This document shows positions 1-53,273 of a stretch of 64,000 bases of DNA, piece by piece. The stretch lies in IMG/VR virus record IMGVR_UViG_3300010885_031309. One strand, written 5' to 3'. Origin of the DNA: a virus (Duplodnaviria > Caudoviricetes). Each line of letters starts with the position of its first letter. The stretch's first letter is position 1. The notes beneath the pieces were generated by a model. It was given only the letters and a program-made list of their open reading frames with translations. It did no database searches and was not told the origin of the DNA. Made by a program: the position numbers and the translations under genes.

Positions 1-196
1 GTTTTGAGAAACTTATTTGGATTTCCTGTCTGTGCAGGTAAACTAACCGGAATATCTTCCCAACTAGCAGTAGTTCCATTTGTTTTGAGAAACTTATTTG
101 GATTTCCTGTCTGTGCAGGTAAACTAACAGGAATATCTTCCCAACTAGCAGTAGTTCCATTTGTTTTGAGAAACTTATTTGGATTTCCTGTCTGTG
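1..196 (-). repeat. 81-bp coding tandem repeat, about 2.4 copies visible (TNGTTASWEDIPVSLPAQTGNPNKFLK)
   Basis: Units start at 1, 82 and 163 and are nearly identical. Confidence 0.95.
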
Positions 197-3100
197 TAGG
201 TAGTGATATAGCAGGCGGTGATGAAATCCAATTATTTCCATTCCATTTAAGAATGTCGTCTATTTGCTTAGTCGTAGTGTTGACATTTAATAACTCATCA
301 AGTGTATCACGCTGACGAACTAAGTAATTAGTTTGAGATACTATCTTTGTTGCACTTGTAACTATTTTTGCCGCTACCACTCTATTGAATGACGACGGTA
401 ATTCAGCAGTACTCGCACTAACTGTTACCGAAGTTCTGTCTCCAGCATTTTTAGTGATGTAAACATAATTAGTGGCACTGGCAATTAAATTAACACTTTG
501 AGTTGGAACAGTAGTGTAGTAACCACCAATAAACAATGGGCATTCTGTAATATATGCCACCAATCCAGTTGAGCTTTCAGCAGAAATATAAACTTGATAT
601 CTAGTAGTAGTAGCATTAAACCATTGATCCTCTGTTAACTCTGAACCAACTCCTCTGACATCACGAGATGAGACCAACGCAATGTTATCATAATTAGAGG
701 ATGATATTGCGCGATAATATCCAAGCGCCGTACTAAATCCAAATGAACTTCCTGGGTAGCCGTTTGGTTGTGTAAAGCTTCCTGCTCCAGTTGATTGAGG
801 AGCAAATCTAGTTAGATCCCCGACTGTTTCTGCTAGATTGCTGTTTGTATTAAATGATGCCCAGTACCAAGCTGATCCCCCAGTTAGCGGAATACTAAAA
901 TTAATCAATAATCTTCCATTATTTGTTAATAGCGTTGTGCCATCAAACGAAATAATATTGTTTGCGTCTCCACGACCTGTTTTACCACTGTCTATTTGTG
1001 TCTGAAAAACATTTGATGTTGCTAATTGCCACGAAGAGCCAGAATATCGTGCTATGTAAGCTAAACCAGCCGCATCGCGAACTACTGCATAAACTATTGG
1101 ACTTGATGTACTACCGTTCCACGCAGAAACTCTGTCCCAAAATACTCCAGTTTTTCCACCAAGATTACTAGGTATCACTGGCAGTGTAATTGAGGTTGCA
1201 GTATAAGTTCTAGTGTTCTGATTAGCTGTTATCGTGTGTATAGTTTGTCCTGGCATTACCCAATAATATGTAGGAGTAGTGCCAACAACCACAGTTCCAA
1301 ACGCAGAAGAATAAAAATTGTTTTTTATGAAAGTCGGTGCTGCACTCGCAGGATCCAGACTTGCATTTGCAGCATCTAATATTAGTGTGTCGTTTGTTTG
1401 CCCCTGAGCAGTAGATGTGAAAGCAGTTTTACTAAATGTTGTTTGTATTGTTTTTGATCCATATTTTACAGACTGTCCAACAAAAATAATATTATTGTCA
1501 ATTACATGTACTAAATTACTGTACAGACTTTTTGACCATGCTGAACCATCGGGAATATACTCAGAGAATGTAGTGTATTTAGATGAGTTGTTACTTCCAA
1601 AAGTCTTATAGATGTACCCGTTGCTATAAGACAACAGAAACACAGTAGCGGTTATTGCACTGTCCCATGTTCCTCGCAACACTTGAAATATATTTCCACT
1701 GTACTCATCTGTGGTAAAGTTTACGGCAAAACCAGCACCTCCACCGTTTTGACTCATACCACCATCATCAGTTTCCCATGTACTGTCTGCCAATTGATTG
1801 TATCTGAATGTGCCAGATTTGACTGGAATTAAATTAGAAGGAGTTCCTGATCCAGTTTCTATCCATGATTTTGGAACAGACCAAGATATGTCCATTGATG
1901 TATTAACTCCAACAGATGCTCCATTTTGTGTGTATATATACCATACGGTGAATTTTTGATGGAAAGTTTGCGTAAACGGATTCCAAGTAAACCCATGAAC
2001 TCCATTTGGAGCATAGGTTAACAGCGGCATAGTACTCGGAGCTATTCTGCCAGAACCTAATGTGTCAGCAGTGTTAACCATTGTGGTTTTATCATAGAGT
2101 AACTGCGATCTTAGTAATCTTTTATTGATGTCATACACTCTAAGCGTTACTTGATTTTGATCGCTACTTACACTAGACGCTAATATTCTGTCACCCGAAT
2201 TAGTAGATACCAATGAAAAGTTTGTTCTTCCATCATACAAACTAGTTACATCAGCAGCAAGAGACCAATCAGTCCAGTTGGATGAGCCATTGGTTTTTGC
2301 AATAACTACTCTGGTGTTTGTTTCTGGTTTAACTGTAGTGGAGAGTACTAGTACTACGAAAAAAGTGCCTAAGTTTAATACGTCGCGAACTTTTTCATTG
2401 CTATTCAGAAATGACGCACTGATAAATTGATTATCATATACGAATTTATCGTTTGATGTGTATCTAAAAGCACGAGCAACATTAGCTGTATTAGTTGGCG
2501 ATGATGTTGGGAAATATATTACTTGTTTACCTTCACGGTCAACAAACATAAAACTTGATGCAGCAAACCTACCCAGAGAGAATGAGAAACTTCCGTATAC
2601 AGGAATGTAATTATCTTTTAAGTATCCAGCATAGGGTGAAAAATTCAAGTAATCAGTTCTATCTACATATGCAGTAGTTGATACAGTGTCGGTAATTCCG
2701 TATCCAGCAAGAGTAGTTGGCTTATCTACTAAATTAGCAAAACTTACAAATTTCCAACTTGCGTCTGCTCCATCTGTGTGTAATACTTTATTAATATTTC
2801 CAGCTTGTGTTGGTAAAAGATTATTTAGTGCAGTCTTTTTGTCATTTGCATTGGTACCTCCATTTTGAATTGGCAATATACCATTTAACGAAACAGTTAC
2901 TGCTCCAGCAGAACCTGATACAGAAATATTGGTTCCGCCAGTTAAAGATGTAACACCAGTATTATTAATTGTTTTACCGTCAATTGAAATTCCAGCGCCG
3001 GCTGAAAACATATTCGGTCCACCGAATTGTGTGAATACTATATTTGAAGTTCCAACAGTTATAACTCCACTGGTATTCATTACCCACTGAGTGGATTCTA

Positions 3101-3848
3101 ATTCCCCCTCACCAATAAAGAATGCATCACCAGCTTTGATATTGATGGAATCGTTATAATCGTCTGTTCTGGTCAGCACATAGGGACTAGTAGTAGTTGT
3201 TACTTCATACATGCCGTTTTGCTTGGCATCAGTTTGATTTTTAACTAATACACGATCACCAAAACGAAGTGTGACACCACTAATTACTGGCAGACTTGTT
3301 GTTCCTGTTAGAGTAGCTCCAACTCCATTTGTGCCGTTTGAATATGTTGCAGTCAATGGTCCGGTTGTTCCTGCTCTAGCAGATACTCCAATTGATAGTC
3401 CATTTGCCAAATTATCTACATATTGCTTTGTTGCGGCATGCAGTCCTTGAGTTGGATCAGCATTTAATTTTAGATAGCCAGTCATTGTATCACCGGCAAT
3501 ATTAACTGCACCCAGATTTGTTCTTGCAGTCGCTTCTGTAGTAGCTCCAGTTCCACCATTTTTTATTGAAAGTGGATACTCAGATACTATATTACTTAAA
3601 ACTCCAAATTCATCAATACTTAATCCTGTTCCTATTTTTACAGAGCCAAGAGCACTTGTACTAGCTATTGGAACTAATCCAGGAGATATTGAATTTGCTG
3701 TTACTATTTCTGTATTTCCAGAATCGGCATTTCCAATAAATAATCTTTTCTGATCCGTTGCCCATCCTAATTCACCCGAATCAAGCTGGGGAAGCTCAGA
3801 ATAGTTACCGGTTTTATTAATTATCTTGCTTATTTGAAGTATTGTCAT
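1..3848 (-). CDS. Long tail fibre / fibre-like structural protein, 3' end runs off the window (absent from ORF track)
   Basis: ATG at 3848 gives MTILQISKIINKTGNYSELPQLDSGELGWATDQKRLFIG. The same frame reads the terminal 27-aa repeats at 1-196. Gly/Thr-rich fibre motifs (GGTGATT, HAATKQYVD, LVKNQTDAKQNG). Not every codon was checked for stops. Confidence 0.8.
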   Translation of the reverse strand, partial: MTILQISKIINKTGNYSELPQLDSGELGWATDQKRLFIGNADSGNTEIVTANSISPGLVPIASTSALGSVKIGTGLSIDEFGVLSNIVSEYPLSIKNGGTGATTEATARTNLGAVNIAGDTMTGYLKLNADPTQGLHAATKQYVDNLANGLSIGVSARAGTTGPLTATYSNGTNGVGATLTGTTSLPVISGVTLRFGDRVLVKNQTDAKQNGMYEVTTTTSPYVLTRTDDYNDSINIKAGDAFFIGEGELESTQWVMNTSGVITVGTSNIVFTQFGGPNMFSAGAGISIDGKTINNTGVTSLTGGTNISVSGSAGAVTVSLNGILPIQNGGTNANDKKTALNNLLPTQAGNINKVLHTDGADASWKFVSFANLVDKPTTLAGYGITDTVSTTAYVDRTDYLNFSPYAGYLKDNYIPVYGSFSFSLGRFAASSFMFVDREGKQVIYFPTSSPTNTANVARAFRYTSNDKFVYDNQFISASFLNSNEKVRDVLNLGTFFVVLVLSTTVKPETNTRVVIAKTNGSSNWTDWSLAADVTSLYDGRTNFSLVSTNSGDRILASSVSSDQNQVTLRVYDINKRLLRSQLLYDKTTMVNTADTLGSGRIAPSTMPLLTYAPNGVHGFTWNPFTQTFHQKFTVWYIYTQNGASVGVNTSMDISWSVPKSWIETGSGTPSNLIPVKSGTFRYNQLADSTWETDDGGMSQNGGGAGFAVNFTTDEYSGNIFQVLRGTWDSAITATVFLLSYSNGYIYKTFGSNNSSKYTTFSEYIPDGSAWSKSLYSNLVHVIDNNIIFVGQSVKYGSKTIQTTFSKTAFTSTAQGQTNDTLILDAANASLDPASAAPTFIKNNFYSSAFGTVVVGTTPTYYWVMPGQTIHTITANQNTRTYTATSITLPVIPSNLGGKTGVFWDRVSAWNGSTSSPIVYAVVRDAAGLAYIARYSGSSWQLATSNVFQTQIDSGKTGRGDANNIISFDGTTLLTNNGRLLINFSIPLTGGSAWYWASFNTNSNLAETVGDLTRFAPQSTGAGSFTQPNGYPGSSFGFSTALGYYRAISSSNYDNIALVSSRDVRGVGSELTEDQWFNATTTRYQVYISAESSTGLVAYITECPLFIGGYYTTVPTQSVNLIASATNYVYITKNAGDRTSVTVSASTAELPSSFNRVVAAKIVTSATKIVSQTNYLVRQRDTLDELLNVNTTTKQIDDILKWNGNNWISSPPAISLPTQTGNPNKFLKTNGTTASWEDIPVSLPAQTGNPNKFLKTNGTTASWEDIPVSLPAQTGNPNKFLK

Positions 3849-3902: not shown

Positions 3903-4622
3903 TCAAGTAATGTTAGACAAGTAATACTGTTCTACTCTTTTCCACCACATATCAGTGTATCGTGTAAACTCAGAACCCTCTAGTATAAATTCCTGATATT
4001 CTGGGTCGCGTGTCATTACTCCGCGGTCGTTGACATCTGGACGAACACACATCATAATCACGCCGCGATTTATAGCAGTATCATAGACTTCATTGTGTGC
4101 TTGAGCATATGCACACAATTGCATAAAATAATCATCTATCCATTCACGCTTTTTTGGCTTGTTGGTTTGCTTAAAGTCAATGATACTTTGTTGAGAAGCA
4201 TGAACACCAACGCAATCAGTTGTGCCAGCATATACTTTTGGAAAATATAGCGAAACTTCTATGCCCCAGAATTCATCACAATTGCTTAAGCCACTGCTGA
4301 TGACTGTTTCAGCCATGTGCCAACTGGGATGATGAAATGGATTTTGAGGTTTATCTGCTAATTTACCGTCACGAATATAATGCTCTAAAAATGTGTGCAT
4401 TTTGGTTCCGCGATTTGCAGCCTCAGTGGTTATTTGCTGAGCCCGTTCAGTTCCAACTCGTTTCTTCCATTCGGTTAATTGCTTAATACGCTCCGCTGGT
4501 TTTGTAGCATCAAGTATAGTAGTTACACTTGGAAGATGTGTGTCGTCGGGAGTAACATATCGTCGTTTACCGTCTATTTCTTTACGGGTAAGAGTTTTGT
4601 AGTTAAATTTTGGATTGTACAT
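3903..4622 (-). CDS. PD-(D/E)XK exonuclease
   Basis: LPSVTTIL, AANRGTKMH, E..YAGTTD..IIDFKQ and QLCAYAQA motifs. Start refined to MYNPKF. Confidence 0.85.
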   Translation of the reverse strand: MYNPKFNYKTLTRKEIDGKRRYVTPDDTHLPSVTTILDATKPAERIKQLTEWKKRVGTERAQQITTEAANRGTKMHTFLEHYIRDGKLADKPQNPFHHPSWHMAETVISSGLSNCDEFWGIEVSLYFPKVYAGTTDCVGVHASQQSIIDFKQTNKPKKREWIDDYFMQLCAYAQAHNEVYDTAINRGVIMMCVRPDVNDRGVMTRDPEYQEFILEGSEFTRYTDMWWKRVEQYYLSNIT

Positions 4623-4627
4623 AGTAA

Positions 4628-4659
4628 AACAGCATAACATAATGTTATGCTGTTGTCAA
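4628..4659 (-). promoter_or_regulatory. sigma70-like promoter TTGACA-17-TATGCT overlapped by a perfect 13-bp inverted repeat
   Basis: AACAGCATAACAT-A-ATGTTATGCTGTT at 4628-4654; -35 at 4654-4659; -10 at 4631-4636. Confidence 0.65.
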
Positions 4660-8262: not shown

Positions 8263-9689
8263 TTAAGTATTCTGCTTTAAGTTATTAAGCATTGCTTTTA
8301 ATTTTGCACTTTGAGTATCGGCAACAACTGGTTTTGCAGATGATAAAATCTCTCCAGTATTAGAGTCAATCTTTGGAGAAACAGCCGTTCCTACACTGCT
8401 GCTGGTTTTAATTTTATTCAACAGAGAACTTGCACTGTTACTGCTGGCAGTGTAACCAGTACTATCACCGTCATCAAAGATTTTTAGAGTGTCAACATTA
8501 AAAGACAAATCAATCTTTTGACCTACACCACTTGATGAACGAGTCTTCATCAATTGAATTTGATATTGTCCCTTTTCTCTCATATGACGACTGGTAAAAA
8601 TGCCGAACACATTATCAGCCGTGTTAATTTTTGAGATACCGCCGCTGATATGACTGTGATCAAATTCAATTTCTTCAACAGCCGAACGATTAAGCTGACT
8701 AGCCGTTACCAACAACACATTCAATTCTTTTGCCAAGTTACGAATTTCCTCACTGACATATTTGTCTTTAATAAACAGATCACTGGGGCTAACTTTTGTA
8801 CTTACTGGCATTAACAAATCCAAATAATCAATACACACAAAATCTATTGTAACTCCAGTTTCAATACTTAGAGTTTTAATGTAGGCGCGAATGTCATTAA
8901 CATTGCTTTGTGCCGGCATGTATTTAATCCAAAATCTACCTGCTTTTTTGGCAGTCATCTTAACTTTTAATTCAACATCGTCCAAATTCTTAAAAACATC
9001 TTTGGTTGATGTATCAGTCATCATACTATCAATACGCCATGCACATAGTTCCTCACTCAGTTCTAGTGTAACGTATACACCATTTAGACCAGCAAGTGCC
9101 CAATTTACACTGAGATTTTGCATGAACAATGATTTGCCGCTACCAGAACCACCAGCAAATATTTGCAACTCACCACGATTGAAACCTCCGTATAATTTGT
9201 TGTCTAGGCAGGGCCATCCAGTGCTTATTTGCCCGTTGTTATTTTTAATCTTATTCAATCTAGCTCGTGGGTCAGCAAAGTAATCAGTGCCCATGTCTTT
9301 TGTAAGAGAAATTTGCACTGCATCTTTGATTAGCTTTTCTACCGGGTCATAGTTACCCTTCTCAAGCAAATCAGCACTCTTAAAGATTGCTCGTTCTAAT
9401 TCTTTCTTGCGAGTAAACTTTTCAAATTCATCTAGAAACCATCAATATCACTTTTGCGTAAGTCATCAATGCACTTCAGACTGAGACCCGTAGTTGCATG
9501 AATTTGATCGCTGTCAGGAACACTAGTATACTTTTCAGCAAACTCTTTAATAAACTTTACTGTTGGTCTGAGACTTTTGTCAAAATTGTCACTGTTCAAA
9601 ATATTAGTAATTCGTGTATACAACTGCGAGTCGCTAATCATCATTCGCAAGAACAATTCTTGTAGCTCTACTCCATACTCTTGACTCAT
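8263..9689 (-). CDS. gp41: Replicative DNA helicase (T4 gp41/DnaB-like), split by a one-base frameshift near 9441
   Basis: Walker A AGGSGSGKS, TLELSE, IDYLDL and TASQLNR motifs in 8263-9369. That frame stays open upstream to 9441 (WFLDEFEKFTRKKELERAIFKSADLLEK). The N-terminal 85 aa lie in another frame (9432-9689). The joined product is ~475 aa. Confidence 0.85.
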
Positions 9690-10645
9690 TTTAATCTCTT
9701 TCTTGCCAACTCTACTTTTATTTTACTACTGGTAGCATGTTGAAATATGCTCATTAGAGTTATTATTTTACCATATTTTCTAACAGCATCATTTACATCT
9801 TTTACATCACTGTCCCACTGTGGAATACTGACTTTGTATCCAAGTTCCAAAGCACGGTCGCAAACTTGTAATCCACTACTGTCTTGATCGGGCACAACTA
9901 TTATAGTTCTATGTAATCTATTAATTAATAGTGCTTGTTCATCACTGATATTACTACCCATATACGCACACCCTCCTATACTAAGAGCATCAAGCTGACC
10001 TTCTACAAAAATACAACTGGTCCAATTGCTTTTTTGTGCGTCTATATTAAATACATATCCAGGTGCCTGATCAGAAATATACTTAGGCTTTTTGCCATCT
10101 ATAAATCTACAGGTATGTCCAACTATTTCATTGTTATAGAAATACGGAATAATAATTCCAGGTCTAGTGGCGTGTTCATCTACATGATACGGATAAGCAG
10201 TTGGATCTAGCCCGCGATTAATCAAATAATCAATATAGGGTTTGTGACTATACTCGCGACTGTCTATTCTGACACTAGTGTCATTTAAACTTTTTCTTGG
10301 AAAATTAGCAACTAGTGCCTTGATAGTCTTTTGTCTTATCTCCAACACATCACGCTTACTAAAGCTCTCAAAGCTTATTTTATTGATGTGATCTTCGTCC
10401 AATCCACACCAACTTAACAATAGTCGTGTGTGTTTTGTTAATTGTTTTCCGAGTTGAAACCCAGCTTTGAAATGACAATTAAAGCAATTGTAGCTCCAAT
10501 TTTGTTCATCATCAAAAATAATTCCGCCGCGACCGCGACGATCAGCGTTATGACCGCGATTTGTGCAGCACGGAGCATTGAAGCTATACCACCCACTGGG
10601 AGTATGCTTCTTTTTACCCGGAATAATAGACAATATATCTAACAT
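9686..10645 (-). CDS. gp61: DNA primase
   Basis: N-terminal Zn motif (CC..H..D....NCFNC), IIIPY, TOPRIM VEGQLDA and DQD, KDVND. Confidence 0.85.
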   Translation of the reverse strand: MLDILSIIPGKKKHTPSGWYSFNAPCCTNRGHNADRRGRGGIIFDDEQNWSYNCFNCHFKAGFQLGKQLTKHTRLLLSWCGLDEDHINKISFESFSKRDVLEIRQKTIKALVANFPRKSLNDTSVRIDSREYSHKPYIDYLINRGLDPTAYPYHVDEHATRPGIIIPYFYNNEIVGHTCRFIDGKKPKYISDQAPGYVFNIDAQKSNWTSCIFVEGQLDALSIGGCAYMGSNISDEQALLINRLHRTIIVVPDQDSSGLQVCDRALELGYKVSIPQWDSDVKDVNDAVRKYGKIITLMSIFQHATSSKIKVELARKRLK

Positions 10646-11486: not shown

Positions 11487-11508
11487 TTTTTTGTCCTCTT
11501 ACCTATTT

Positions 11509-11886
11509 ATGACCAATGATTTTTTTCAAAAATTGAGCGAGTCGCATCCGTTTATAACGGTGTGTAGTTATGCTGGACAAGAATATGTCGGTGTAATTCA
11601 AAATCGCGACGATTTTATAACTACTTTTTACAACTACGGTAGCATAATTGACCCAGAACTTAAACAATTATTTTTGACGCTTGGCGATCAATGGTGGTGG
11701 GAAAGTAATAGACTTATACCAATCAATATTTTCTTACGAGATGACTGGTCAATATTCAAACAATATTTGTTGACATTTAATAACAAGGGATTGGTTATTC
11801 TTCATGGACCAGCAACATGCATGAGTGATCTGGCACGAAAAAGAGTAAAAAGACGAAGCATTACATTAGTAAAACGAATGCACTGA
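11509..11886 (+). CDS. Hypothetical protein
   Basis: Lone plus-strand ORF; TATAAATA at 11458-11465; start refined to ATG 11509. Confidence 0.7.
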   Translation: MTNDFFQKLSESHPFITVCSYAGQEYVGVIQNRDDFITTFYNYGSIIDPELKQLFLTLGDQWWWESNRLIPINIFLRDDWSIFKQYLLTFNNKGLVILHGPATCMSDLARKRVKRRSITLVKRMH

Positions 11887-11889
11887 TAA

Positions 11890-12501
11890 TCATTGTGACA
11901 ACTGTCCTAAGTCATAGGATCCAGTTTTTCTATAACATTCATCTAATAAATTTAGATGAACTACTACTAAGTGTGCGTATGCCACACTGTGGCTACGCTT
12001 GAACACATACCCGTCAGTTTCCTTAGTCCAAACTGATTCTGATACTTCTTTCCACGACATGCCTATTAAGTGTTTTTTACCTGGTCTAATTATACTAAGA
12101 AACATGGCCATGCGAGATATACTATCAATCGGCTCAGGCATAGATAGCATAGTATCATAATGATTTGCTATATGAATGATCTTACTAAAATACTCGCGAT
12201 CCATTAATCGTGACCAGTCTGGTTCTTGCATTAATTTTTTAAGATGTTGTTCATCAGTTACATATTTGTATACCCAAACATTTAACAAGTCCAATTTAAT
12301 ATAACCACGATTTTCTGCACGAGTGTAGTCCAATGCTGACACTTGATGTATTGGATCATATGGAATATCGGTAGGATAAACCCCAGTGTTGTGCTTTCTA
12401 ACATCAGCATCCTTTCTAATAGACGCAGATGTTACATCTATTACTGAAAGTAATAGATTTCTATCAGCAACATCTAAATCAATATCACTACTAAATCTCA
12501 T
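11890..12501 (-). CDS. Minimal DNA polymerase III alpha (DnaE)-like protein
   Basis: SDIDLD, KHNTGVY, GYIKLDLL, LSIIRPG and YVFKRSHSVAYA match ordered DnaE motifs. Confidence 0.75.
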   Translation of the reverse strand: MRFSSDIDLDVADRNLLLSVIDVTSASIRKDADVRKHNTGVYPTDIPYDPIHQVSALDYTRAENRGYIKLDLLNVWVYKYVTDEQHLKKLMQEPDWSRLMDREYFSKIIHIANHYDTMLSMPEPIDSISRMAMFLSIIRPGKKHLIGMSWKEVSESVWTKETDGYVFKRSHSVAYAHLVVVHLNLLDECYRKTGSYDLGQLSQ

Positions 12502-13217
12502 GTTAGAGCCAGTTTAATCACATTTTTAATATCTTCAACTAATTGCGTGTCTCGCTTGAGCTTGATATTCCATCGTTCAGTGTCAATATATTCCCAAATA
12601 ACATTACGCTGATCTGTGTTTAACTCTGATAAAAATTCATTTCCAGATTGACTCAAATATAACATCCATGGGCTAATATGTCCAGTGCTAATCAGATGAC
12701 ACAGTTTGTTCTTGTTGTAGTACTTGAATACATCCTTTAGTTGAATTTGTTCCTGAATTGATATATCCAACATTGTTTTAACACTGCGTTTTACCGCATC
12801 ATATGCATCTTCTGTCTTAAGATAGTCAACCAAGTAGCGAGTGTACACGCGGTCGCTATTCCAGTTGTCAATTGATACATTATTATTAATCAAATATCTT
12901 ACATATTCAGCCACATTCACGGCTCTGATATCAACACAGTAATTGCCAAACTTAACAAATGCTGTGTAGTATGCATTAGAAATAAACGCTTTGTAGTCTT
13001 TTTTCTTTTTGCTTGGTTGTACTTTATTATAGAAAGTTAACCATGCATCATACGCTATTCTGTTTCCAGGCTTGTCTTTATCCTGCCAACGCAATTTTTG
13101 CTCACACAAATGCTTGAACAGTGTTGACTCGCGAACAAAAGTTCTAGCACAGTGTTCACAAGTATTCAACTCAGTGTTATTAACTTCCAGTGTCTTGCTC
13201 ATAATCTTTAATGTCAT
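12498..13217 (-). CDS. Hypothetical protein with N-terminal C2H2-like zinc finger
   Basis: CEHCARTFVRESTLFKHLC. Confidence 0.75.
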   Translation of the reverse strand: MTLKIMSKTLEVNNTELNTCEHCARTFVRESTLFKHLCEQKLRWQDKDKPGNRIAYDAWLTFYNKVQPSKKKKDYKAFISNAYYTAFVKFGNYCVDIRAVNVAEYVRYLINNNVSIDNWNSDRVYTRYLVDYLKTEDAYDAVKRSVKTMLDISIQEQIQLKDVFKYYNKNKLCHLISTGHISPWMLYLSQSGNEFLSELNTDQRNVIWEYIDTERWNIKLKRDTQLVEDIKNVIKLALT

Positions 13218-14438: not shown

Positions 14439-17027
14439 TCAATACTCTAACTTTTCAAGAGTATACGGATAATTCTGCTCACGGTAAAACTCTTTACGCT
14501 TTGTTAAATGTCGTTTAGCAAATCTACATGTGCTAGTCACATCCCATATTTGAACGAAATCTTTATCTTCTGCTTTACGAATACCTCGTCCAATAGATTG
14601 AACAACTCTAACAAAGCTTTTTCCGGGCTCCAAAAGAACCAAATTGAATATTCTGGGTATGTTGATACCCACGGCAGCAACACCGTATGTCGCTACGATA
14701 ATCTTGTCATTACTGATCGCGACTTCATCATACTCTTCTTTGCGTTCTTTTAGCTTTGTCTTGCCGCGAATGAACACGCTATTTGGTAGTCTATTGACCA
14801 ACTCTTCTCCAGCAGCAACCCGATCAACCAGAATCAATGTATTTCCAGTTTCAACAATGTTGAGTACTAGCTTGGAAATAGTATCAAGGCGAGTTTTGTC
14901 TGACAACAAATGACTCAACTCACTCTGATAATCTCTGAACTCGGCGTGATCTTGCATTTGTACAATGTTGACATGACACTGAGATAGTACGCCAGCTTCC
15001 TGTAACTCACTTGCCTTTAGCTTATTGATTACTGGACCAATACAAGTAAACAATGCTTGGCTAGCAAACAAATCTTTTGGAATAGTGCCGGTAAGACCCC
15101 ACCGAATAGGAATGCTGGACATTATTCCACTTAATAGTGTCTTAAGTGCATCGGATTTTACGGAGTGTGCTTCGTCTACCATTACGCAAACTACTCCCTC
15201 TATGAACTCATAAATAGTAATGTCAGTCTCACCCTCTTTGGTATTCTTAAGTAAGTTGTTCAAGCTTTGCCAAGTACAAATAGTATGCTTGTGTCCGTGC
15301 TCTTTTCTGTCTCCAAAATAGACTCCAACATCTAGTCCTAGATTTCTGTAATCTGCCTCTGTCTGAGTTACCAGTGATTTGTTTGGAACAATAACTATGG
15401 TTCTTCCAACTGATTCGCAGCAGTAACTTAGTGCGGCAGTGATTATGGTGTTATGCGTGACAACGTAGTTATCAGTGACATAAAGATGTTCTGGATCATC
15501 TATGTATATACATCTAACTGGCTCTGTGGATATCTTGACAATATCAGTTATTTTCAACTTCAGCGAATCTTGATATTGATAATCAGAGGAAGCTTTATCG
15601 ATCTTTCGTTGAAGACTTGATAACTCTCTAGGACGAGGGAATCTAACACTAACAACAAAGCATTTCTTTCCGAGTCTTCTCTCTTCATTATACGTATAGT
15701 AGTTAGAAGTCTTCTCTTTTATTCTTGCTAGTCCACCAACACTCCAAATCATTTCTTGAAAGTCTTTGGCTAAAGATTCACTAGTGCTACAAAAAGTTAT
15801 GCAGCCATTTCGCCCAATATGACCGTCAGAGTCTATAAGTCCGCGAATAAGTTCCATTCTCTGATTCAGTGACCCCGAGAAAAACTCGCGAGGAATGAAC
15901 TTTTCGTGAGAAAGCTTATTGTTCAGCCCAAGATTGATAATTGTCTGAACATAATGGTGACTTGATGTTGATTGTTCATTCTTTATAAACCCACCATTAG
16001 AAGAACGACGCAAGGTCTTGAAATGTTCTCTGAGTGCATTCTTCTGAGTTATCATATTCGTGAAGACTATTGAGTATTCATATTCTGATAGACGCTTGAT
16101 CTTATAGCCAGGCATAAGCTTCGATTCAATCTTAGGTACTAGTTCCAAATCAGCCGTGGAAAAAGAAAGTCTACCGTGTCTAAATGAACCGTCTCCAAGC
16201 AAAAAACCAAGTAACCAGGGATCCATTGGCAACTCTCTGTCAATAGTATCTTGCTCCATCGTGATCAATGGTAATCCTATTGCTCGTTTAGTATTTTCTT
16301 TCAACTCAATGAGTTCTTTTGTTGTTATATGTCTCCAGGGACCTCCACGTTTAGAACCTGAACGCCAACCAATGTTATGAACTTTCCAAATATGATCTTC
16401 GCACGCTCTCGCAGTTCTTCCATCAGCAAACTTTAGTTCATAAACATCCTTTGTTCCTGGTTCATATATCTTCAAAATATTTGCAGATTTTCCGGATGGA
16501 GTTGTGACTCTATCACCAACATTCAGCGAGCCCATTTCTACCCATCCATTTGAAGTTAGAACTTTACTTGAATATGGCTGACACTTGCCCGCACCAGTAG
16601 CAACTTCTTGTATGCTTTGTGGGTTGACTAAGAAGTTGTTGATGATCTCAACTTGATAATCTCTGAGTACAATCGGCTGACCAGCAATTGGATGACCAGT
16701 GGGCCAAGTTTTGTGACTGAACGATTGATCAGTGATAGTGTTAAACTCAAAATGAGTACGATACTGTCTCGTATCTTCTAGTTCAATGTCATACCCAGAC
16801 TCTTCTAAAACAGGAATTATTTCGTCCAGCAGATTAATGTATGTGCTACCCCCTAACTGAAAGTATGAGATCTTTCCGTTCCATCTTCCTAGACGCACAC
16901 TGGGCAGATACTTTGCACCTGGAATTTCGTACTCAAATTTTTTGACCAATGCTCGTCTGGTGTCTAAGTCTAACCCTTCAAACTTTACATTTACTTCGTC
17001 TCGTATGATTAGTTTACAGTTTTTCAT
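14439..17027 (-). CDS. uvsW: UvsW-like SF2 helicase containing an intein
   Basis: LRDYQ, ATGAGK|T, VDEAH, GLTGT, ATYGVAAVGINIP and QSIGRGIR motifs. Confidence 0.92.
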   Translation of the reverse strand: MKNCKLIIRDEVNVKFEGLDLDTRRALVKKFEYEIPGAKYLPSVRLGRWNGKISYFQLGGSTYINLLDEIIPVLEESGYDIELEDTRQYRTHFEFNTITDQSFSHKTWPTGHPIAGQPIVLRDYQVEIINNFLVNPQSIQEVATGAGKCQPYSSKVLTSNGWVEMGSLNVGDRVTTPSGKSANILKIYEPGTKDVYELKFADGRTARACEDHIWKVHNIGWRSGSKRGGPWRHITTKELIELKENTKRAIGLPLITMEQDTIDRELPMDPWLLGFLLGDGSFRHGRLSFSTADLELVPKIESKLMPGYKIKRLSEYEYSIVFTNMITQKNALREHFKTLRRSSNGGFIKNEQSTSSHHYVQTIINLGLNNKLSHEKFIPREFFSGSLNQRMELIRGLIDSDGHIGRNGCITFCSTSESLAKDFQEMIWSVGGLARIKEKTSNYYTYNEERRLGKKCFVVSVRFPRPRELSSLQRKIDKASSDYQYQDSLKLKITDIVKISTEPVRCIYIDDPEHLYVTDNYVVTHNTIITAALSYCCESVGRTIVIVPNKSLVTQTEADYRNLGLDVGVYFGDRKEHGHKHTICTWQSLNNLLKNTKEGETDITIYEFIEGVVCVMVDEAHSVKSDALKTLLSGIMSSIPIRWGLTGTIPKDLFASQALFTCIGPVINKLKASELQEAGVLSQCHVNIVQMQDHAEFRDYQSELSHLLSDKTRLDTISKLVLNIVETGNTLILVDRVAAGEELVNRLPNSVFIRGKTKLKERKEEYDEVAISNDKIIVATYGVAAVGINIPRIFNLVLLEPGKSFVRVVQSIGRGIRKAEDKDFVQIWDVTSTCRFAKRHLTKRKEFYREQNYPYTLEKLEY
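15450..16583 (-). mobile_element. LAGLIDADG intein (378 aa) in the UvsW Walker A motif
   Basis: GAGK|CQPYSSKV...LGFLLGDG...RGLIDSDG...YVVTHN|T. Confidence 0.93.
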
Positions 17028-17034
17028 CAGTAGA

Positions 17035-17064
17035 ATTATACTTATCAACCGTGTAGTGTGTCAA
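17035..17064 (-). promoter_or_regulatory. sigma70 promoter TTGACA-18-TATAAT for uvsW
   Basis: The -10 box lies 7 nt from the ATG at 17027. Confidence 0.75.
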
Positions 17065-17123: not shown

Positions 17124-18167
17124 TCAAGCCTTGATGCAAGTCTCACGAGCAAGCATTTTCCAGTCGTTGGAGTCAATGCGAAACAGATCGGCAATCTTGA
17201 GCGACATACGGAGACTAATTTCGCGCATCTTGGAACGGTTCTCCCACATGAAGTCCAGAATTTCCTCAGCTTCGTTACCCTGAAAATCGTAGCTAGAGAA
17301 CAGACCACCAACCGTATCTTTACTGGCATCCTCGTGAACCTGCTTGACGCGAAGCATCTTATCACGCTCAGTGTTGATGGTCAGATCCAGATAGTGACAA
17401 CGAGATTGAAGTGCTTCCAAATGAGCCGCGATCTTCTTAGAACGACGGTCGCTAAAATCCAAGTTGGTCACGAAGATACAAGAACCGTTGAACTCAAAGT
17501 CAGTGGGAATGCCTTCCTTACGCAGATAAGAACTGTCACTGTTCCACCAAATGCGACGACGCTTGCCACTGTCAAGTGCAGCCTTCAGAATGTTAAGTGC
17601 ATCCTGATCGTCCCACACATCGCAATCGTCAAAGACCAACACTGACTTGGAATCACTGTACTTATACAGCAGTGCATACAGACCGATAGCAGTGATCGCA
17701 CCCTTGACAATCTCAAAACGAGTGCGCTTGCCAGCCAGCTTATCAAACAAGCTTGCCTTTTCCAGTTGAGTTTCAATACCGAACGACTTGCCAACACCAG
17801 GAGGGCCAGTCACGATCATGGCACGGCACTCACCGTTGATCGTAGCCTTGGTCATGGTGTCCAGAATGCGAAAGCGACGACGAATCCGATCCATTGCCTG
17901 CTCGTCAGTCTCATTGGATTCAGCCGCGACCGCAGGAGAGAATGCTACCACTTGAGCGGGTGCGGCAGCGTTGACAACCATCTCTACATCAGACATACTG
18001 GCAATTTCAATATAAACCTGCTTGGAATCACCAGGCAGTTGACCGTCATTTTTGACTTGAATGCGACCAGTCATGGCATCCAGCGGACGAGCCAGCGTAA
18101 ACATCATATTCTCCACTGCAAAATTCATCTTACGATACACACCACGCTTAACAAGAATCTTAGCCAT
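17124..18167 (-). CDS. P-loop (AAA-like) ATPase, early gene
   Basis: GPPGVGKS, LVFDDCD, IFVTN and ALQSR motifs. Confidence 0.8.
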   Translation of the reverse strand: MAKILVKRGVYRKMNFAVENMMFTLARPLDAMTGRIQVKNDGQLPGDSKQVYIEIASMSDVEMVVNAAAPAQVVAFSPAVAAESNETDEQAMDRIRRRFRILDTMTKATINGECRAMIVTGPPGVGKSFGIETQLEKASLFDKLAGKRTRFEIVKGAITAIGLYALLYKYSDSKSVLVFDDCDVWDDQDALNILKAALDSGKRRRIWWNSDSSYLRKEGIPTDFEFNGSCIFVTNLDFSDRRSKKIAAHLEALQSRCHYLDLTINTERDKMLRVKQVHEDASKDTVGGLFSSYDFQGNEAEEILDFMWENRSKMREISLRMSLKIADLFRIDSNDWKMLARETCIKA

Positions 18168-40100: not shown

Positions 40101-43100
40101 TTATATTGCGGGAGGAGCAGTCTCTGGGCCAACTGCTGGCGGTGCACCCACTGGAGCAGTAACTTCTGGAGAGATACCTGGCATCTGCTCTTGACCCTCT
40201 GGAGGAATATTTTCTGCCGTTTCGGTGTCACTTTCAATGTCACTAGTGCTTAGTCCAATACTACGCAAATCTGTGCCCTTTGCTGTTTTTTCTTCGTCTT
40301 CTGGTTTACTATGCTCTTCATGCCATAACTTCTCGTTCTTCTTTATTTCTTCTTGACTTAGGCCCAAAAATCTTTCCATTGCAAATCTAGTAGATATGTA
40401 TGGTAGCTGTGCCACTGAATTAAACACATTTACTCTGACTTGATCAATTTCACTTTGACGATACGCTGCGAAATTTTGAGGGGGGTTAAATTTTAAATCA
40501 AATAAACCAGCGTCTATATTGAATCCACGCCAGCGTAAGAATAACTTGAACTCTTCATTCAATTTGCGAGCAATGTAACCCTGCAAACGCTCACAATATT
40601 GATTGAAACGATACTCTTGTATTAGTGCAGTTCCTACTTTTCCGTCTACTAATGGTCGCTCACTATCTTCTGGACCAGTTGGTAGATAACTACTTGGTAC
40701 ACGCAATCCTCGTGCAAGTCTGTTGTTGAAGTATCTAAGATCATCTATTTCCCCTAGATTGCTATTTTTCGTAAATACGCCAACGCTCAGGGCAAAAGTA
40801 TGATAATCATGATATATTTCATCGCCGTCAATTGTCAACGTGCCAACTGAGATCTCTTCTTCTAACCACTCAAGGGCAGCTACTCGGTGATTGTGCACGC
40901 TTTCTTTCACACGAAAGTCTTTCCATGACTTATATCCAAATTGTTGCACTAGTGAACGTCTGATGTTTCCTGGAGTGAACCCTTCTTCAACCTTCCAGTT
41001 ACGAACTTGTTTATCTTTGTTCAGTTCAACTAACTTATCTCGTAGAGATGACTTGTTCAATTCAGCAGCGATATTGTCAGCAGTTACTTCATGCGTAGTT
41101 TTTCCCTTGACCATATCAATAACAAACTTCAGCATGTCATGTGTATACTCAACTCGCTGTCTATCACTGTGCTTCTTCTTGCGCTCTTTGCCGCGCTCGT
41201 CGCTCCAATTGATGTAGTTCCATTCTCTGGTTTGATATGCACGTTGTTCACGAAGTTTCTCGGTCCACCCTGCACTCTGCTGCTGACAAACCCATGCATG
41301 GTATTCTTCATCAGTGCGCATTTTTTCTAGTTTTCGTGATGAGGCAATTTTGAATGCATCACGCGAATTTTGTGCTCTAGATTCACGATCATCTTCAGAT
41401 AGAGATTCAATATATTTTTTTATCGAGGCGCTCATCTTGTCCGTTATGAGCTGGCGTTCTTCATCAGTAAGATTGCTCCAGAACTGTCTAAGACCATCGA
41501 CAAAGTTTTCTTTTTGTTCAGGTGTTGTGTTTTCCCATCGTTTTTTTTGCGCTATTGAATTATTCTTGCAAATTTTCCTATATTCATTTATATTATTTTC
41601 TTTGATAATTTGAATTCGCTGTGTGTTGTGGTCAGCGTGATACTTGATATGGTCACTGAATGACATCCAGCATAGATTTTGCGGATCATTGTTGAATCTA
41701 TTGAAGTCTTTATGATGTCTGACTTCATACAATCCATTACTGGTGGACGAATCATGAACATGATAACACACGAGGGTATCTTTTAGATAGTCAGCGACTG
41801 TTCGGTGAGTAAACTTCCACTCTTTTGCCTCATTGTCGTAATACTGTTCATATTCATTTTTGCTTTTTCCAAGATATTCTTTCTTTCTATATAGAGGAAT
41901 CATACTGTCGCCCACAACAAATTCGTCGGCGCGCTTGAATTCTTGTTCATATACTGGAAATTTATGTTCCGGTGTACAGATAATATGCTCACCGTTATCA
42001 AGAGTAATCTTTAGCACTTTCGCACGAGGCTTAGTTACGCCGGCCCATGTAATTAGTCCAGGGACTACTTTTCCAGTAAGTGGCTCACAACTGTATGTCC
42101 ATAGCTGTTTGCCAGTTTTCATTTCACTTTCAATTTCAGCAATAGATAGTTCTCTGCCATCCAATAACGAAACTCTAGTATCCATGCTAAAACATCCGCC
42201 CGGCAGTGTAGTAACATCACTACCACGACCGTCTGCTGTTACTGGAAAGAAGTAGTCCTCATTGATTGAGTTTTTAATGAAGATTCCAGAATCAATCGCA
42301 AAAGTATGATAGTTGTGCCATCTTTCGGTTCCATCAATAGTTATAGTGCCGGTATCACGATTGCTAACTCGCTCAATACTTACTACGCGATGGTTAAACT
42401 GTTCAATTGAGCTAACGAAATGTTTCCAATTTTTATATCCGAATTGTGTAATTAGACGATTAATTTTCTTTTCGCCAAATTGATTCAAATTAATTTTATT
42501 TTGCGTAGCACTATCACTCATCTCAGAGTTGTGCTGTCTTACAAGTTCAAGTAGCTTTTCATCGCTTGAACACAAATCAATAATTTTCTTTTTGTTTTTA
42601 CCGTGAGCTTTGACTTTTTCTACTACTAACTGAAGCATGTCAAATGTCATCGTGAGCTTTTGGTTATTAAACTTTACTCTGTTTTCTAAATTTTTATTAA
42701 GTTGCTGGGCAAAAGCTGGATTATTTTTAATATATTCTTTTCTGGACTTACTTGCATTTATTGAATATTTTGCTGCATGTTCTGAGTCATTATTGCGAAG
42801 CCACACTGCTTTAGTCTGCGCTGCACGAATGCGGTACAGAGCAATATGACGCTCATGCTCGGTCATTATATTCCAGTTCTGTTTTACAGTTTCTGAAATT
42901 TTACCAGTAAGCTCAGCACGATATTCTTCTGTCATGGTTTTCCAAAAATCAGATTCCTGTGCAGCGTGATACAGTATATGATCCTTCTTGTTCATGTATG
43001 TTAGATTGCGCGGATCATTATTGAATCTGTTATAATCACGGTGATGTATTACTGTTTTTTCTGCGCCAATATTTTCTGAAAGATATGTATACTCTTGATG

Positions 43101-44555
43101 TTTTTCAATCTTTCTAAAAAACTCGCCTACCATGCGATGAGTCCACACCCACTCGCGAGTTTCATGATCCCATACTTGTTGATATTCGCTTGATTTTTCA
43201 CCACTGATTTTTTCGTTTCTCACATTGAACGCTATCAGACTATCTTCTGCTGTCAAATTTTGTGCTTCAACAAATCCTTTGCCGAATACTGGAATTTTGT
43301 GATCAGGTGTGCATGTTAAAGTTTTTCCATTATCTAGTGTTACTTTGATAACTTCGGTGTTCTTGCGTGTAATACCTGCCCAGTTAATTACACCTGGTAC
43401 TACTTTACCAGTGACTGGATCACAACTATAGGTCCAGTTTTCTTTACCAGATTCAAACTCACGAATTAACTCCTGTAATTCCAGAGTTCGTCCATCCAAT
43501 AGTGGAATTCGTGTACTTAAATCCAAGCAAAGTGGATTATATGTAGCATCCATTACACTCTGTCCGCCATGAACACTTGGTATTCTTCGCTGATGAATTT
43601 CGTCTTTAATTCTATTAACGAATGCCATAGCCAAGTGACTTGGCATATTTCCAACATCTATTTTGAATATTCTGCGCTCTGGTGCCCGTTGAACACGATA
43701 TATTAGAATAGCGTCTTCTAATAATTCTTTCTGCTTATAAACTTTGAATATATTTTCAAGTATACTTTGTCCAAATGGCCAATAACGGTCAAGTCCTTCA
43801 GTCAAGCTAAGATGCACTACATGCTTAGCATCTATAGCAGCTTCGTTAATACCCAAGCTAAATCTACTGCCCGTGGTTCCATAAGGTTCGTTTGGAACAG
43901 TATAGCTGTATGGAGCACTGTACCCAGCGGTAGGTGGCTGTGCTTGAAAGTCAGTAGTAGTCTTTTCAGCAATACTTAAATTTTGTAAATTTGGATTAAT
44001 ATCTTTGATTACATACTGCTCAGGCTTCTTGCCCTCACTCTCGTTGACAATAACTTTGACGACCTTTGTCATGTCAGTCCAATACAGTTTGAAATTTTCT
44101 GGGTCACGAACAAAAACCTGATCACCGTACTTTACTGTGTTGCGAAATATCTTAAATATTCTGGTGTCCAACTCATTCAATTTACACCACTGCTGTAATT
44201 GCTTTACTACTAGTTCAACTTCAGTAGTAGTGGGATCATCATTAAACTGTATCTCAAACGGCGTATTGTTGTGTTCATTCATCTGTGTACTAAATTCAGA
44301 AAGAATGTCCAAACATGCGTTTATTTCAGGATCCACATCCATCATTTCATACTGATTGTATCGCTCTATGCGATTTGGATGTCCTGTATAGACTTCTGGC
44401 AGTCTGCTTTGATAGTTTCTAAAAGCAAAATCATTGTTCCAGCCGCCAGTTGGTTCTTTATTCATACCAGCGTTCCATGAGCCGGTATTACTGTTCATAC
44501 CGCTTATTGGACTTAGTGAACCGTGTTGATTTGTGAATTTTCGTTTATATGACAT
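40101..44555 (-). CDS. gp20: Portal vertex protein with two inteins (mature ~587 aa)
   Basis: LEDAILIYRVQRAPERRIFKIDVGNMP, EDYFFP, NLGEIDD and LRVPSSYL motifs. Confidence 0.95.
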   Translation of the reverse strand: MSYKRKFTNQHGSLSPISGMNSNTGSWNAGMNKEPTGGWNNDFAFRNYQSRLPEVYTGHPNRIERYNQYEMMDVDPEINACLDILSEFSTQMNEHNNTPFEIQFNDDPTTTEVELVVKQLQQWCKLNELDTRIFKIFRNTVKYGDQVFVRDPENFKLYWTDMTKVVKVIVNESEGKKPEQYVIKDINPNLQNLSIAEKTTTDFQAQPPTAGYSAPYSYTVPNEPYGTTGSRFSLGINEAAIDAKHVVHLSLTEGLDRYWPFGQSILENIFKVYKQKELLEDAILIYRVQRAPERRIFKIDVGNMPSHLAMAFVNRIKDEIHQRRIPSVHGGQSVMDATYNPLCLDLSTRIPLLDGRTLELQELIREFESGKENWTYSCDPVTGKVVPGVINWAGITRKNTEVIKVTLDNGKTLTCTPDHKIPVFGKGFVEAQNLTAEDSLIAFNVRNEKISGEKSSEYQQVWDHETREWVWTHRMVGEFFRKIEKHQEYTYLSENIGAEKTVIHHRDYNRFNNDPRNLTYMNKKDHILYHAAQESDFWKTMTEEYRAELTGKISETVKQNWNIMTEHERHIALYRIRAAQTKAVWLRNNDSEHAAKYSINASKSRKEYIKNNPAFAQQLNKNLENRVKFNNQKLTMTFDMLQLVVEKVKAHGKNKKKIIDLCSSDEKLLELVRQHNSEMSDSATQNKINLNQFGEKKINRLITQFGYKNWKHFVSSIEQFNHRVVSIERVSNRDTGTITIDGTERWHNYHTFAIDSGIFIKNSINEDYFFPVTADGRGSDVTTLPGGCFSMDTRVSLLDGRELSIAEIESEMKTGKQLWTYSCEPLTGKVVPGLITWAGVTKPRAKVLKITLDNGEHIICTPEHKFPVYEQEFKRADEFVVGDSMIPLYRKKEYLGKSKNEYEQYYDNEAKEWKFTHRTVADYLKDTLVCYHVHDSSTSNGLYEVRHHKDFNRFNNDPQNLCWMSFSDHIKYHADHNTQRIQIIKENNINEYRKICKNNSIAQKKRWENTTPEQKENFVDGLRQFWSNLTDEERQLITDKMSASIKKYIESLSEDDRESRAQNSRDAFKIASSRKLEKMRTDEEYHAWVCQQQSAGWTEKLREQRAYQTREWNYINWSDERGKERKKKHSDRQRVEYTHDMLKFVIDMVKGKTTHEVTADNIAAELNKSSLRDKLVELNKDKQVRNWKVEEGFTPGNIRRSLVQQFGYKSWKDFRVKESVHNHRVAALEWLEEEISVGTLTIDGDEIYHDYHTFALSVGVFTKNSNLGEIDDLRYFNNRLARGLRVPSSYLPTGPEDSERPLVDGKVGTALIQEYRFNQYCERLQGYIARKLNEEFKLFLRWRGFNIDAGLFDLKFNPPQNFAAYRQSEIDQVRVNVFNSVAQLPYISTRFAMERFLGLSQEEIKKNEKLWHEEHSKPEDEEKTAKGTDLRSIGLSTSDIESDTETAENIPPEGQEQMPGISPEVTAPVGAPPAVGPETAPPAI
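40764..42194 (-). mobile_element. Portal intein 2 (477 aa) with HNH-type endonuclease
   Basis: LPGG|CFSMDTRVSLLDG...CTPEHKF...HHKDFNRFNN...VFTKN|SNLGE. Confidence 0.92.
42270..43529 (-). mobile_element. Portal intein 1 (420 aa) with HNH-type endonuclease
   Basis: YNPL|CLDLSTRIPLLDG...CTPDHKI...HHRDYNRFNN...IFIKN|SINED. Confidence 0.92.
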
Positions 44556-53100: not shown

Positions 53101-53273
53101 TTACTAGTTAGTGGTTGTGCTTTGCCAGTACCATTCCTTGAGCCATCACCGCCCAAATCTAAGTTTTCGCCTAGAATCAGTGTAAGATCCTTGCGATCAA
53201 AATTTATTTCCTGTTCTACATTTCCAATGCTTAGAAAATTTTTAAGTCGCAGTGTTTTTAGTTTTATACTCAT
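50115..53273 (-). CDS. gp46: Recombination endonuclease ATPase subunit (SbcC/Rad50-like) with an intein
   Basis: NFLSIGN, NGTGK|TT, LSRGE, FIDELMD and VSHR motifs. Confidence 0.93.
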   Translation of the reverse strand: MSIKLKTLRLKNFLSIGNVEQEINFDRKDLTLILGENLDLGGDGSRNGTGKAQPLTSNILTPHGWTLMRDISVGDSVIAHDGSLAKVIGVYPQGIKSVYKFTFRDGRTCEASEDHLWNVYSHLFRNKTDINHTRILTTLELIELLNVNSQKKKAFNFLYVPLYTPRDTENVSVPISCYTLGALLGDGHLKSSVGITSVDQEILTRVNDELQLIDCSLRQSQSTTRPKISYRVVMNHRKNNPKKITHPLRSRLIDLKLNVNSEEKFIPEIYKNISVSQKLELLRGLLDTDGTVDRTGSISFSSSSKQLAMDVTDLIRSIGGIARIREKIPRFTYLNEKKEGKKAYIVLIRYHNPKKLFSLSRKLDRISADYQYADQLRLQISDIQKIDNSECQCIAIDHKDHLYVTDNYVVTHNTTILQGLSYALFGSPINQIKKDNLINRTNGKQMHAVVEFTVNDNDYQIVRGRKPNVLKFYVNNKQQSSDDNDAQGENKETQQAIERILGMSSDMFQHIVGLNSYTTPFLSMRVSDQRTIIEQLLGITLLSEKADAIKELNKTTKEDIQREEFRVNGVEAANKRITEQIDSLKKRQRLWIAKRDEDLLKLVTEYDQLQLVDIGAELAAHKDLAVWNSNKEKLDRYDAVLARQTAWRQKLDKEVAALQSSLTKLTKIDIAAELSAHSELAIHNTKVSEREIWAKELQRAKSDGEKLAKSAQKLQEEVHELEQHRCYACGQEFHDSKHTEVLEKKRKLLVETNEGYAAAHELWNKLVNSEVIVGNKPTTHYNTHAEAIKHSSEVDRISKQIEDKLSETDPYAEQLLENSTLVLGPQPKTHYDTEEAAFKHSSRVQTLLDQIQKKHSEEDPYAEQIAEMQTNAIQTVDFSEINRLTRLLQHQDYLLDLLTNKKSFVRKKIIEQNLSYLNNRLSHYLDRIGLPHRVVFQNDLSVEITELGRELDFDSLSRGERTRVILGLSFAFRDVWENLYQSVNVMFIDELMDSGMDTVGIENGLALLKDFSRNRNKSVWLVSHRDELTNRVNNTVKVVKENGFTSLKELEE
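52035..53120 (-). mobile_element. Ala1 class-3 (WCT) LAGLIDADG intein (362 aa) in the gp46 Walker A motif
   Basis: GTGK|AQPLTS...EDHLW...LGALLGDG...RGLLDTDG...CQCIAID...VTHN|T. Confidence 0.92.

Follow-up and report, generated by a model that had tools for sequence, protein, structure and literature searches.

Can a chain of 203 residues serve as a DNA polymerase on its own, or is it part of something larger? The question is raised by a short gene in the window analysed here (the whole stretch of DNA studied, 64,000 nucleotides in length, from an uncultured jumbo phage). A sequence-only reading had described the product as a compressed DnaE catalytic core and had taken it for a self-sufficient minimal polymerase. 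We asked what the protein is related to, whether it is complete, where any missing part might be encoded and what the enzyme would do in a phage with a T4-type replication machinery.

The 203-residue protein and its relation to Pol III alpha

The gene (termed the C-unit gene in Table 1 and below) is an open reading frame of 203 codons on the minus strand, with an ATG at position 12501 and a TGA at 11892–11890. The five DnaE-like motifs named in the sequence-only reading were all found on this strand in the order stated there, and each can be placed on the Escherichia coli sequence (Table 1). The distances between them are strongly reduced: the first aspartate and the fingers histidine lie 166 residues apart in the C-unit as against 360 in E. 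coli DnaE; the spacer between D10 and H37, the site of the thumb, is 26 residues long compared with 105 (D405 to H511) in E. coli; and approximately 90 fingers residues that separate RPG from FNKSH in E. coli DnaE are missing. As the C-unit spans the equivalent of DnaE residues 397–790, some 394 residues of DnaE have been shrunk to 203.

Table 1. Features of the window, with the motifs of the C-unit and their E. coli DnaE equivalents.
Feature	Position	Strand	Remarks
Exonuclease	3903–4640		
gp41/DnaB-like helicase	8263–9689	minus	Just downstream of the C-unit
Primase	9686–10645		Just downstream of the C-unit
131-aa gene	11491–11886	plus	PHROG 11637; convergent on the C-unit 3' end
C-unit gene (P0001, 203 aa)	11890–12501	minus	ORF; PHROG 11778 (E 8e-54); AlphaFold2 model
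YVFKRSHSVAY	11977–12009	minus	Fingers; E. coli YGFNKSHSAAY (F756-H760-Y764); F167..H171 = F756..H760
LSIIRPG	12079–12099	minus	Fingers; E. coli ALFRPG; R139-P140-G141 = R639-P640-G641
GYIKLDLL	12283–12306	minus	E. coli GLVKFDFL (equivalence from hmmsearch and hhalign alignments); K69 = K553, D71 = D555 (third catalytic aspartate)
KHNTGVY	12376–12396	minus	Palm picks up again beyond the site of the lost thumb; E. coli K510-H511-A-G-G514-V-V; K36-H37..G40 = K510-H511..G514
DIDLD	12472–12486	minus	First two catalytic aspartates; D6, D8, D10 = E. coli D401/D403/D405
ATGA overlap	12498–12501	minus	Stop of the upstream gene and start of the C-unit; read from the sequence
239-aa gene	12498–13217	minus	Upstream of the C-unit; PHROG 11058; N-terminal C2H2-like zinc-finger motif
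UvsW	14439–17048		With LAGLIDADG intein
AAA-type protein (347 aa)	17124–18167	minus	NrdC.10-like
T4-like portal	40101–44555		With intein splicing domain and HNH
SMC/gp46-like ATPase	50115–53273		With Hint and LAGLIDADG intein

Pfam, NCBIfam and single-sequence PDB searches with the 203-aa protein returned nothing meaningful, the C-unit falling below every Pfam DnaE model, and its homology was seen solely through a PHROG model (PHROG 11778, ‘DNA polymerase’, 197 positions, of which 7–193 match residues 5–188 of the protein) and through a profile of its own family. The latter was built from an alignment (A1) of 79 diverse homologues sharing 27–54% identity with the query. Run against 177,635 PDB sequences, this profile retrieved Pol III alpha only (nine distinct chains, E 2e-5 to 3e-4), matching the segments that carry the K-x-D strand, RPG and F-K-x-S-H to E. 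coli DnaE residues 538–641 and 740–769, and an hhalign comparison of A1 with E. coli DnaE agreed with this alignment.

The AlphaFold2 model computed from the same alignment (pLDDT 95.9, pTM 0.89) points to the same relationship. The top 14 Foldseek matches were all Pol III alpha, with a best E-value of 1.5e-3 and poor global superposition, and the top 15 chains found by VIA-align were all C-family polymerases (Z 6.2–9.6, 182–198 of the 203 residues aligned), the best unrelated chain reaching Z 3.7 over 43 residues. Residues 1–203 of the model correspond in this comparison to E. coli DnaE 397–790 (Z 7.3–7.8), and the PolC and Thermus aquaticus enzymes scored Z 9.3–9.6. The comparisons with DnaE proposed in the sequence-only reading, by profile and by predicted structure, thus both led to C-family polymerases. 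Four beta-strands of the palm are present in the model, along with K69, the metal-binding aspartate triad and a fingers region of reduced size; the model is devoid of the hG[GS] nucleotide-binding loop, the first strand and the helices of the Pol-beta-like catalytic fold. No Pfam match to a PHP domain was found in the C-unit, the chain beginning five residues before the DxD motif, and no Pfam domain for the beta-clamp-binding, OB or tau-binding parts, the chain stopping at the equivalent of E. coli residue ~790. That PHP, clamp-binding and OB domains are missing had been noted from the sequence, and the blank Pfam result and a model confined to DnaE 397–790 bear this out. The resemblance goes well past anything that chance would produce. 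As judged from profile and predicted fold together, the C-unit is a genuine and conserved module of the C-family (Pol III alpha) that has been cut down drastically in length but has retained the catalytic triad.

Homologues of the C-unit were found by tblastn in 96 jumbo-phage records (36–44% identical, with more than 90% of the length covered), including those of RaK2 (YP_007007279.1), Paride (WPK40247.1), K64-1, GAP32, 121Q/PBECO4, PA5oct, Atu_ph07, Phosso (XYS97594.1) and SCTP-2. The names given to these proteins vary, among the phage records listed, between ‘hypothetical protein’, ‘putative membrane protein’ and ‘DNA polymerase’. In metagenomes the family falls into 3,861 clusters when grouped at 90% identity and has 357 representatives at 50%, and among the matches listed the full-length proteins measure about 180–220 aa, shorter entries covering the query in part. 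The nearest homologues among the matches listed share 73% (Logan) and 67% (NCBI) identity with the window protein, and the C-unit of the nearest viral contig, G001, is 68–69% identical. Six positions (D6, D8, K69, D71, R139 and P140) are occupied by the same residue in 79 of the 79 homologues of A1; a lack of conservation of the aspartates (D6, D8 and D71), which the sequence-only reading had named as grounds for refutation, is thus not seen. Near-invariance was seen at D10 and H37 (78/79 each), G40 and H171 (77/79 each), A176 (74/79) and K168 (73/79).

The complementary N-unit and a natural fusion

A minimal DNA polymerase III alpha split between two genes was described in group 2.2 jumbo phages by Iyer, Anantharaman, Krishnan, Burroughs and Aravind (2021, Viruses 13:63; PMC7824862), in whose account an N-terminal NTP-binding unit (N-unit) and a C-terminal Mg2+- and template-binding unit (C-unit) are encoded by distant genes, in phages that also have a B-family polymerase. 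Literature searches turned up no paper in which either half had been assayed biochemically. In the relatives of the window phage we found the complementary half as a separate frame of about 170–186 aa, one per genome, matching Pfam family PF07733 above cut-off over profile positions ~19–97 (RaK2, Paride, Phosso and the viral contigs G001, G002 and G003). This N-unit gene occurs in six of the 10 relatives’ records, among them each of the four whose completeness is 90% or higher, while the remaining four, without a PF07733 match, are fragments 10–52% complete and thus uninformative either way. The N-unit family is itself large (at least 8,000 clusters, with PF07733 in 120 of the 120 listed), and many of those listed have been named ‘DNA polymerase III alpha subunit’ by JGI.

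The five N-units that were read end in ...GVGRGSS...EFL[KRN]-stop, the counterpart of E. coli DnaE ...GPGRGSGAGS...ERFLNPE (residues 348–395). With the N-unit ending at ~395 and the C-unit starting at ~397, the break falls between the two and nothing is missing. Trans-splicing by a split intein was considered and rejected, since the stop codon in the five N-units follows directly on DnaE-homologous sequence and only five residues precede DIDLD in the C-unit, leaving no space for intein fragments. The division into N- and C-units is ancient and family-wide and is not the result of a recent homing-endonuclease event.

One protein joins the two halves in a single chain. P0176 (375 aa) consists of an N-unit at residues 1–180 (31–41% identity to N-units, E 1e-22) followed by a C-unit at residues 190–371, and is the sole fused form among the best 150 of the 357 C-unit representatives. 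It is known from one metagenomic contig of 2.4 kb in ENA (2,415 bases); a word-index search for fused forms among longer proteins gave no hit, and we found no mention of a fused form in the 2021 description of the split enzyme. The P0176 model has a pLDDT of 70.5, with low values at residues 1–79 and 168–188. Its input alignment (A3) held 30 N-units and five C-units, with the last ~20 N-unit residues misplaced, which is probably the reason for the low confidence at 168–188. Residues 76–375 of the model superpose on residues 291–830 of Taq Pol III alpha (Z 17.3, 282 residues, rmsd 3.4 Å), and the model also matches E. coli DnaE 270–773 (Z 11–12). Generic members of the Pol-beta fold, namely ANT(2'')-Ia and the palm of Pol beta, align to P0176 residues 123–276 (Z 3.3–5.3), that is, across the junction, which argues that the catalytic fold is built from both halves.

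Taken together, the gene in the window is very probably the C-unit of a two-piece minimal Pol III alpha of the RaK2/PA5oct/Atu_ph07 type (group 2.2), the two pieces together presumably forming an auxiliary polymerase. The description of the protein as a compressed DnaE core is therefore correct in that it is a shortened C-family module with its triad, but it is incomplete, being the C-terminal half of a two-gene enzyme. The sequence-only reading had also named a piece of a split full-length DnaE as the outcome that would count against it. The gene does turn out to be the C-terminal half of a split enzyme; its complement, however, does not restore a full-length DnaE, because neither half contributes any PHP, thumb, clamp-binding or OB part.

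Genomic setting and predicted position of the partner gene

The window carries a T4-type module (gp41-like helicase, primase, UvsW, UvsX, UvsY, gp32-like SSB and a T4-like portal), and the replication and recombination block around the C-unit also contains an HD phosphohydrolase together with UvsY, UvsX and the gp32-like SSB. Primase and DnaB-like helicase do lie beside the C-unit, as had been read from the sequence (Table 1), and the order UvsW or helicase, C-unit, primase and helicase is kept in RaK2, Paride and Phosso. Both the length of the C-unit and its synteny are preserved from Pseudomonas to Sinorhizobium phages. A B-family polymerase (PolB) was found in four of five relatives, in agreement with the earlier view that the lineage uses such an enzyme.

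The putative clamp-loader subunit that the sequence-only reading placed beside the C-unit was not confirmed, no clamp loader being found near the gene. The sole candidate found is the 347-aa AAA-type gene, which has a marginal match to a clamp-loader PHROG (E 9e-4) but encodes a homologue of T4 NrdC.10, and its reading as a clamp loader was rejected on that account. The protein matches 1,305 phage records at 35–48% identity over its C-terminal three quarters; many of the NrdC.10-like records are labelled ‘thioredoxin’, apparently by mistake.

The stop codon of the 239-aa gene upstream overlaps the start of the C-unit, and from this arrangement the two genes are likely to be translationally coupled. 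By tblastn the 239-aa protein was found in 93 phage records and, among the matches listed, the C-unit is present in all of them; its gene always lies upstream of the C-unit on the same strand, at distances from 17 bases (PA5oct) to 3.6 kb (SCTP-2). An atlas search with this protein yielded phage hypothetical proteins and a C2H2 hint only. The 239-aa C2H2-like protein could be a functional partner of the C-unit, or the two could merely belong to a conserved syntenic core. On the other side of the C-unit, the 131-aa gene keeps its position next to the C-unit in RaK2, Paride and Phosso, and its product is 90% identical to that of G001 compared with 68–70% for the neighbouring proteins.

Other features of the window deserve mention. 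Three essential genes (UvsW, the T4-like portal and the SMC/gp46-like ATPase) contain inteins. The helicase gene is split into ORFs of 85 and 368 aa by a one-base difference at 9430–9445 (minus strand), where the window reads GATGGTTTC and G001, with one continuous frame, reads GATTGGTTTC; the conservation of the protein continues right across the break. A programmed –1 frameshift was ruled out because G001 has one more T and an unbroken frame, and the break reflects either a mistake in sequencing or assembly or a frameshift of recent origin.

The N-unit itself was absent from the 64-kb window (tblastn). Gene by gene, the window follows the order seen in G001. There both halves are on one strand, with the N-unit about 15 kb (~14.6 kb) downstream of the C-unit (200490–215643), and the collinearity predicts that the N-unit of the window phage would be found approximately 3 kb beyond the left end of the window. 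The two genes are about 34 kb apart in RaK2, 44 kb in Paride and 220–224 kb in Phosso. The left end itself (positions 1–180) consists of a 78-base tandem repeat inside an ORF on the minus strand (3–3848) that encodes more than 1,282 aa and runs off the window, and this repeat may be the site of an assembly break. The window may thus start at one end of its contig, for which the protein collection gives a length of 224,978 bases; with such a break, the N-unit gene would be expected at the opposite end of that contig.

Proposed role, alternatives and known systems

We infer that the N-unit, encoded in this phage by a gene that would lie off the window, and the C-unit come together without a covalent link and restore a single active site where they meet. 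In this arrangement the incoming nucleotide would be gripped by its triphosphate in the N-unit, and both Mg2+ ions would be bound by the C-unit, which would also touch the template. Such a heterodimer would act as an auxiliary template-directed DNA polymerase beside the B-family replicase of the phage. Given that the N- and C-unit genes lie in a replication and recombination block, gap filling, primer extension and repair are plausible roles, and processive DNA synthesis is doubtful for an enzyme that has no thumb, proofreading domain or clamp-binding part. More tentatively, and we regard this as possible rather than expected, the pair could be the smallest known C-family polymerase, a thumbless, PHP-less and clamp-independent heterodimer of about 370 residues dedicated to one step beside PolB. 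Conserved neighbours, mainly the 239-aa C2H2-type protein, might conceivably act as extra subunits that replace the missing DNA-holding parts.

An alternative that we consider improbable is that the N- and C-units form something other than a template-directed polymerase, such as a terminal transferase or a modifying or signal-making nucleotidyltransferase of the Pol-beta fold. This would suit an enzyme lacking all of the thumb, proofreading and clamp-binding parts in a phage lineage that already has PolB, and the Pol-beta fold is common to many non-polymerase enzymes, some of which are among the weaker structural matches obtained here. However, what has been kept outside the palm is the DnaE fingers segment, in which RPG and F-K-x-S-H-x-x-Y-A are nearly invariant throughout A1; in DnaE structures this part of the fingers is turned towards the template and the nascent base pair. 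Every relative inspected, moreover, has its C-unit gene among genes for replication and recombination. The auxiliary two-piece polymerase is the preferred reading.

Less probable still is the proposal with which this locus was first described, that the 203-aa C-unit is by itself an active C-family nucleotidyltransferase. It is true that the aspartate triad, K69 and the motifs of the fingers are all present and invariant, and the C-unit alone models as a compact and confident fold, but that fold has four palm strands only, without the hG[GS] nucleotide-binding loop. The GRGS loop, the first strand and the helices that a self-sufficient polymerase would need are absent from the chain and, in all four of the complete or near-complete relatives tested, the GRGS unit is encoded by a separate gene. 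That the natural fusion P0176 joins both halves, and that Pol-beta-fold enzymes align across its junction, argues likewise that the core fold needs the two units, as in the two-piece enzyme preferred here. Finally, a non-catalytic remnant of an acquired dnaE, or a decoy interfering with host Pol III, is scarcely credible despite the very small size of the C-unit and the loss of most DnaE domains, since no catalytic residue varies across 79 homologues at identities down to 27%, the family is large (357 representatives at 50% identity), length and synteny are kept between phages of Pseudomonas and Sinorhizobium, and a decoy would have no need of a metal-binding triad.

The split minimal Pol III alpha has been known since 2021, and the gene described here adds one member, from an uncultured jumbo phage, to a family that proves to be very large (thousands of metagenome clusters) and strictly conserved. 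There is no Pfam model for the C-unit, and annotations should present its members as one of two separately encoded halves of an enzyme instead of as polymerases in their own right. A two-piece C-family core of ~370 residues would be a tractable model of palm and fingers in isolation from the thumb, PHP and clamp-binding parts, and would be informative about how the bacterial replicase arose.

Among known systems, the window protein most resembles the C-unit of the split Pol III alpha (Iyer et al., 2021), with which it shares family, length and Mg2+- and template-binding content, and its synteny with UvsW, primase and helicase is that of RaK2, Paride and Phosso; unlike the published members, it comes from an uncultured phage. 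With the bacterial replicative polymerases of the C-family (E. coli DnaE, 2HNH and 5FKU; Thermus aquaticus Pol III alpha, 2HPI and 3E0D; Mycobacterium tuberculosis DnaE1, 5LEW; and Geobacillus PolC, 3F2B) the C-unit has in common the homologous palm strands and fingers segment, the aspartate triad and the K-x-D, RPG and F-x-K-S-H motifs. It differs from them in having no PHP, thumb, distal fingers, beta-clamp-binding, OB or tau-binding parts, and whereas DnaE and PolC are single chains, the GRGS part of the palm is carried by another polypeptide in the relatives of the C-unit. The combined core of the N- and C-units (P0176 residues 123–276) also recalls the fold of the Pol-beta superfamily (ANT(2'')-Ia, MenT toxins and the palm of Pol beta), whose minimal enzymes bear the hG[GS] loop and the carboxylate triad on one chain and have no DnaE-type fingers, but these enzymes are far less similar to the mini Pol III alpha (Z 3.3–5.3) than are the C-family polymerases (Z 9–17).
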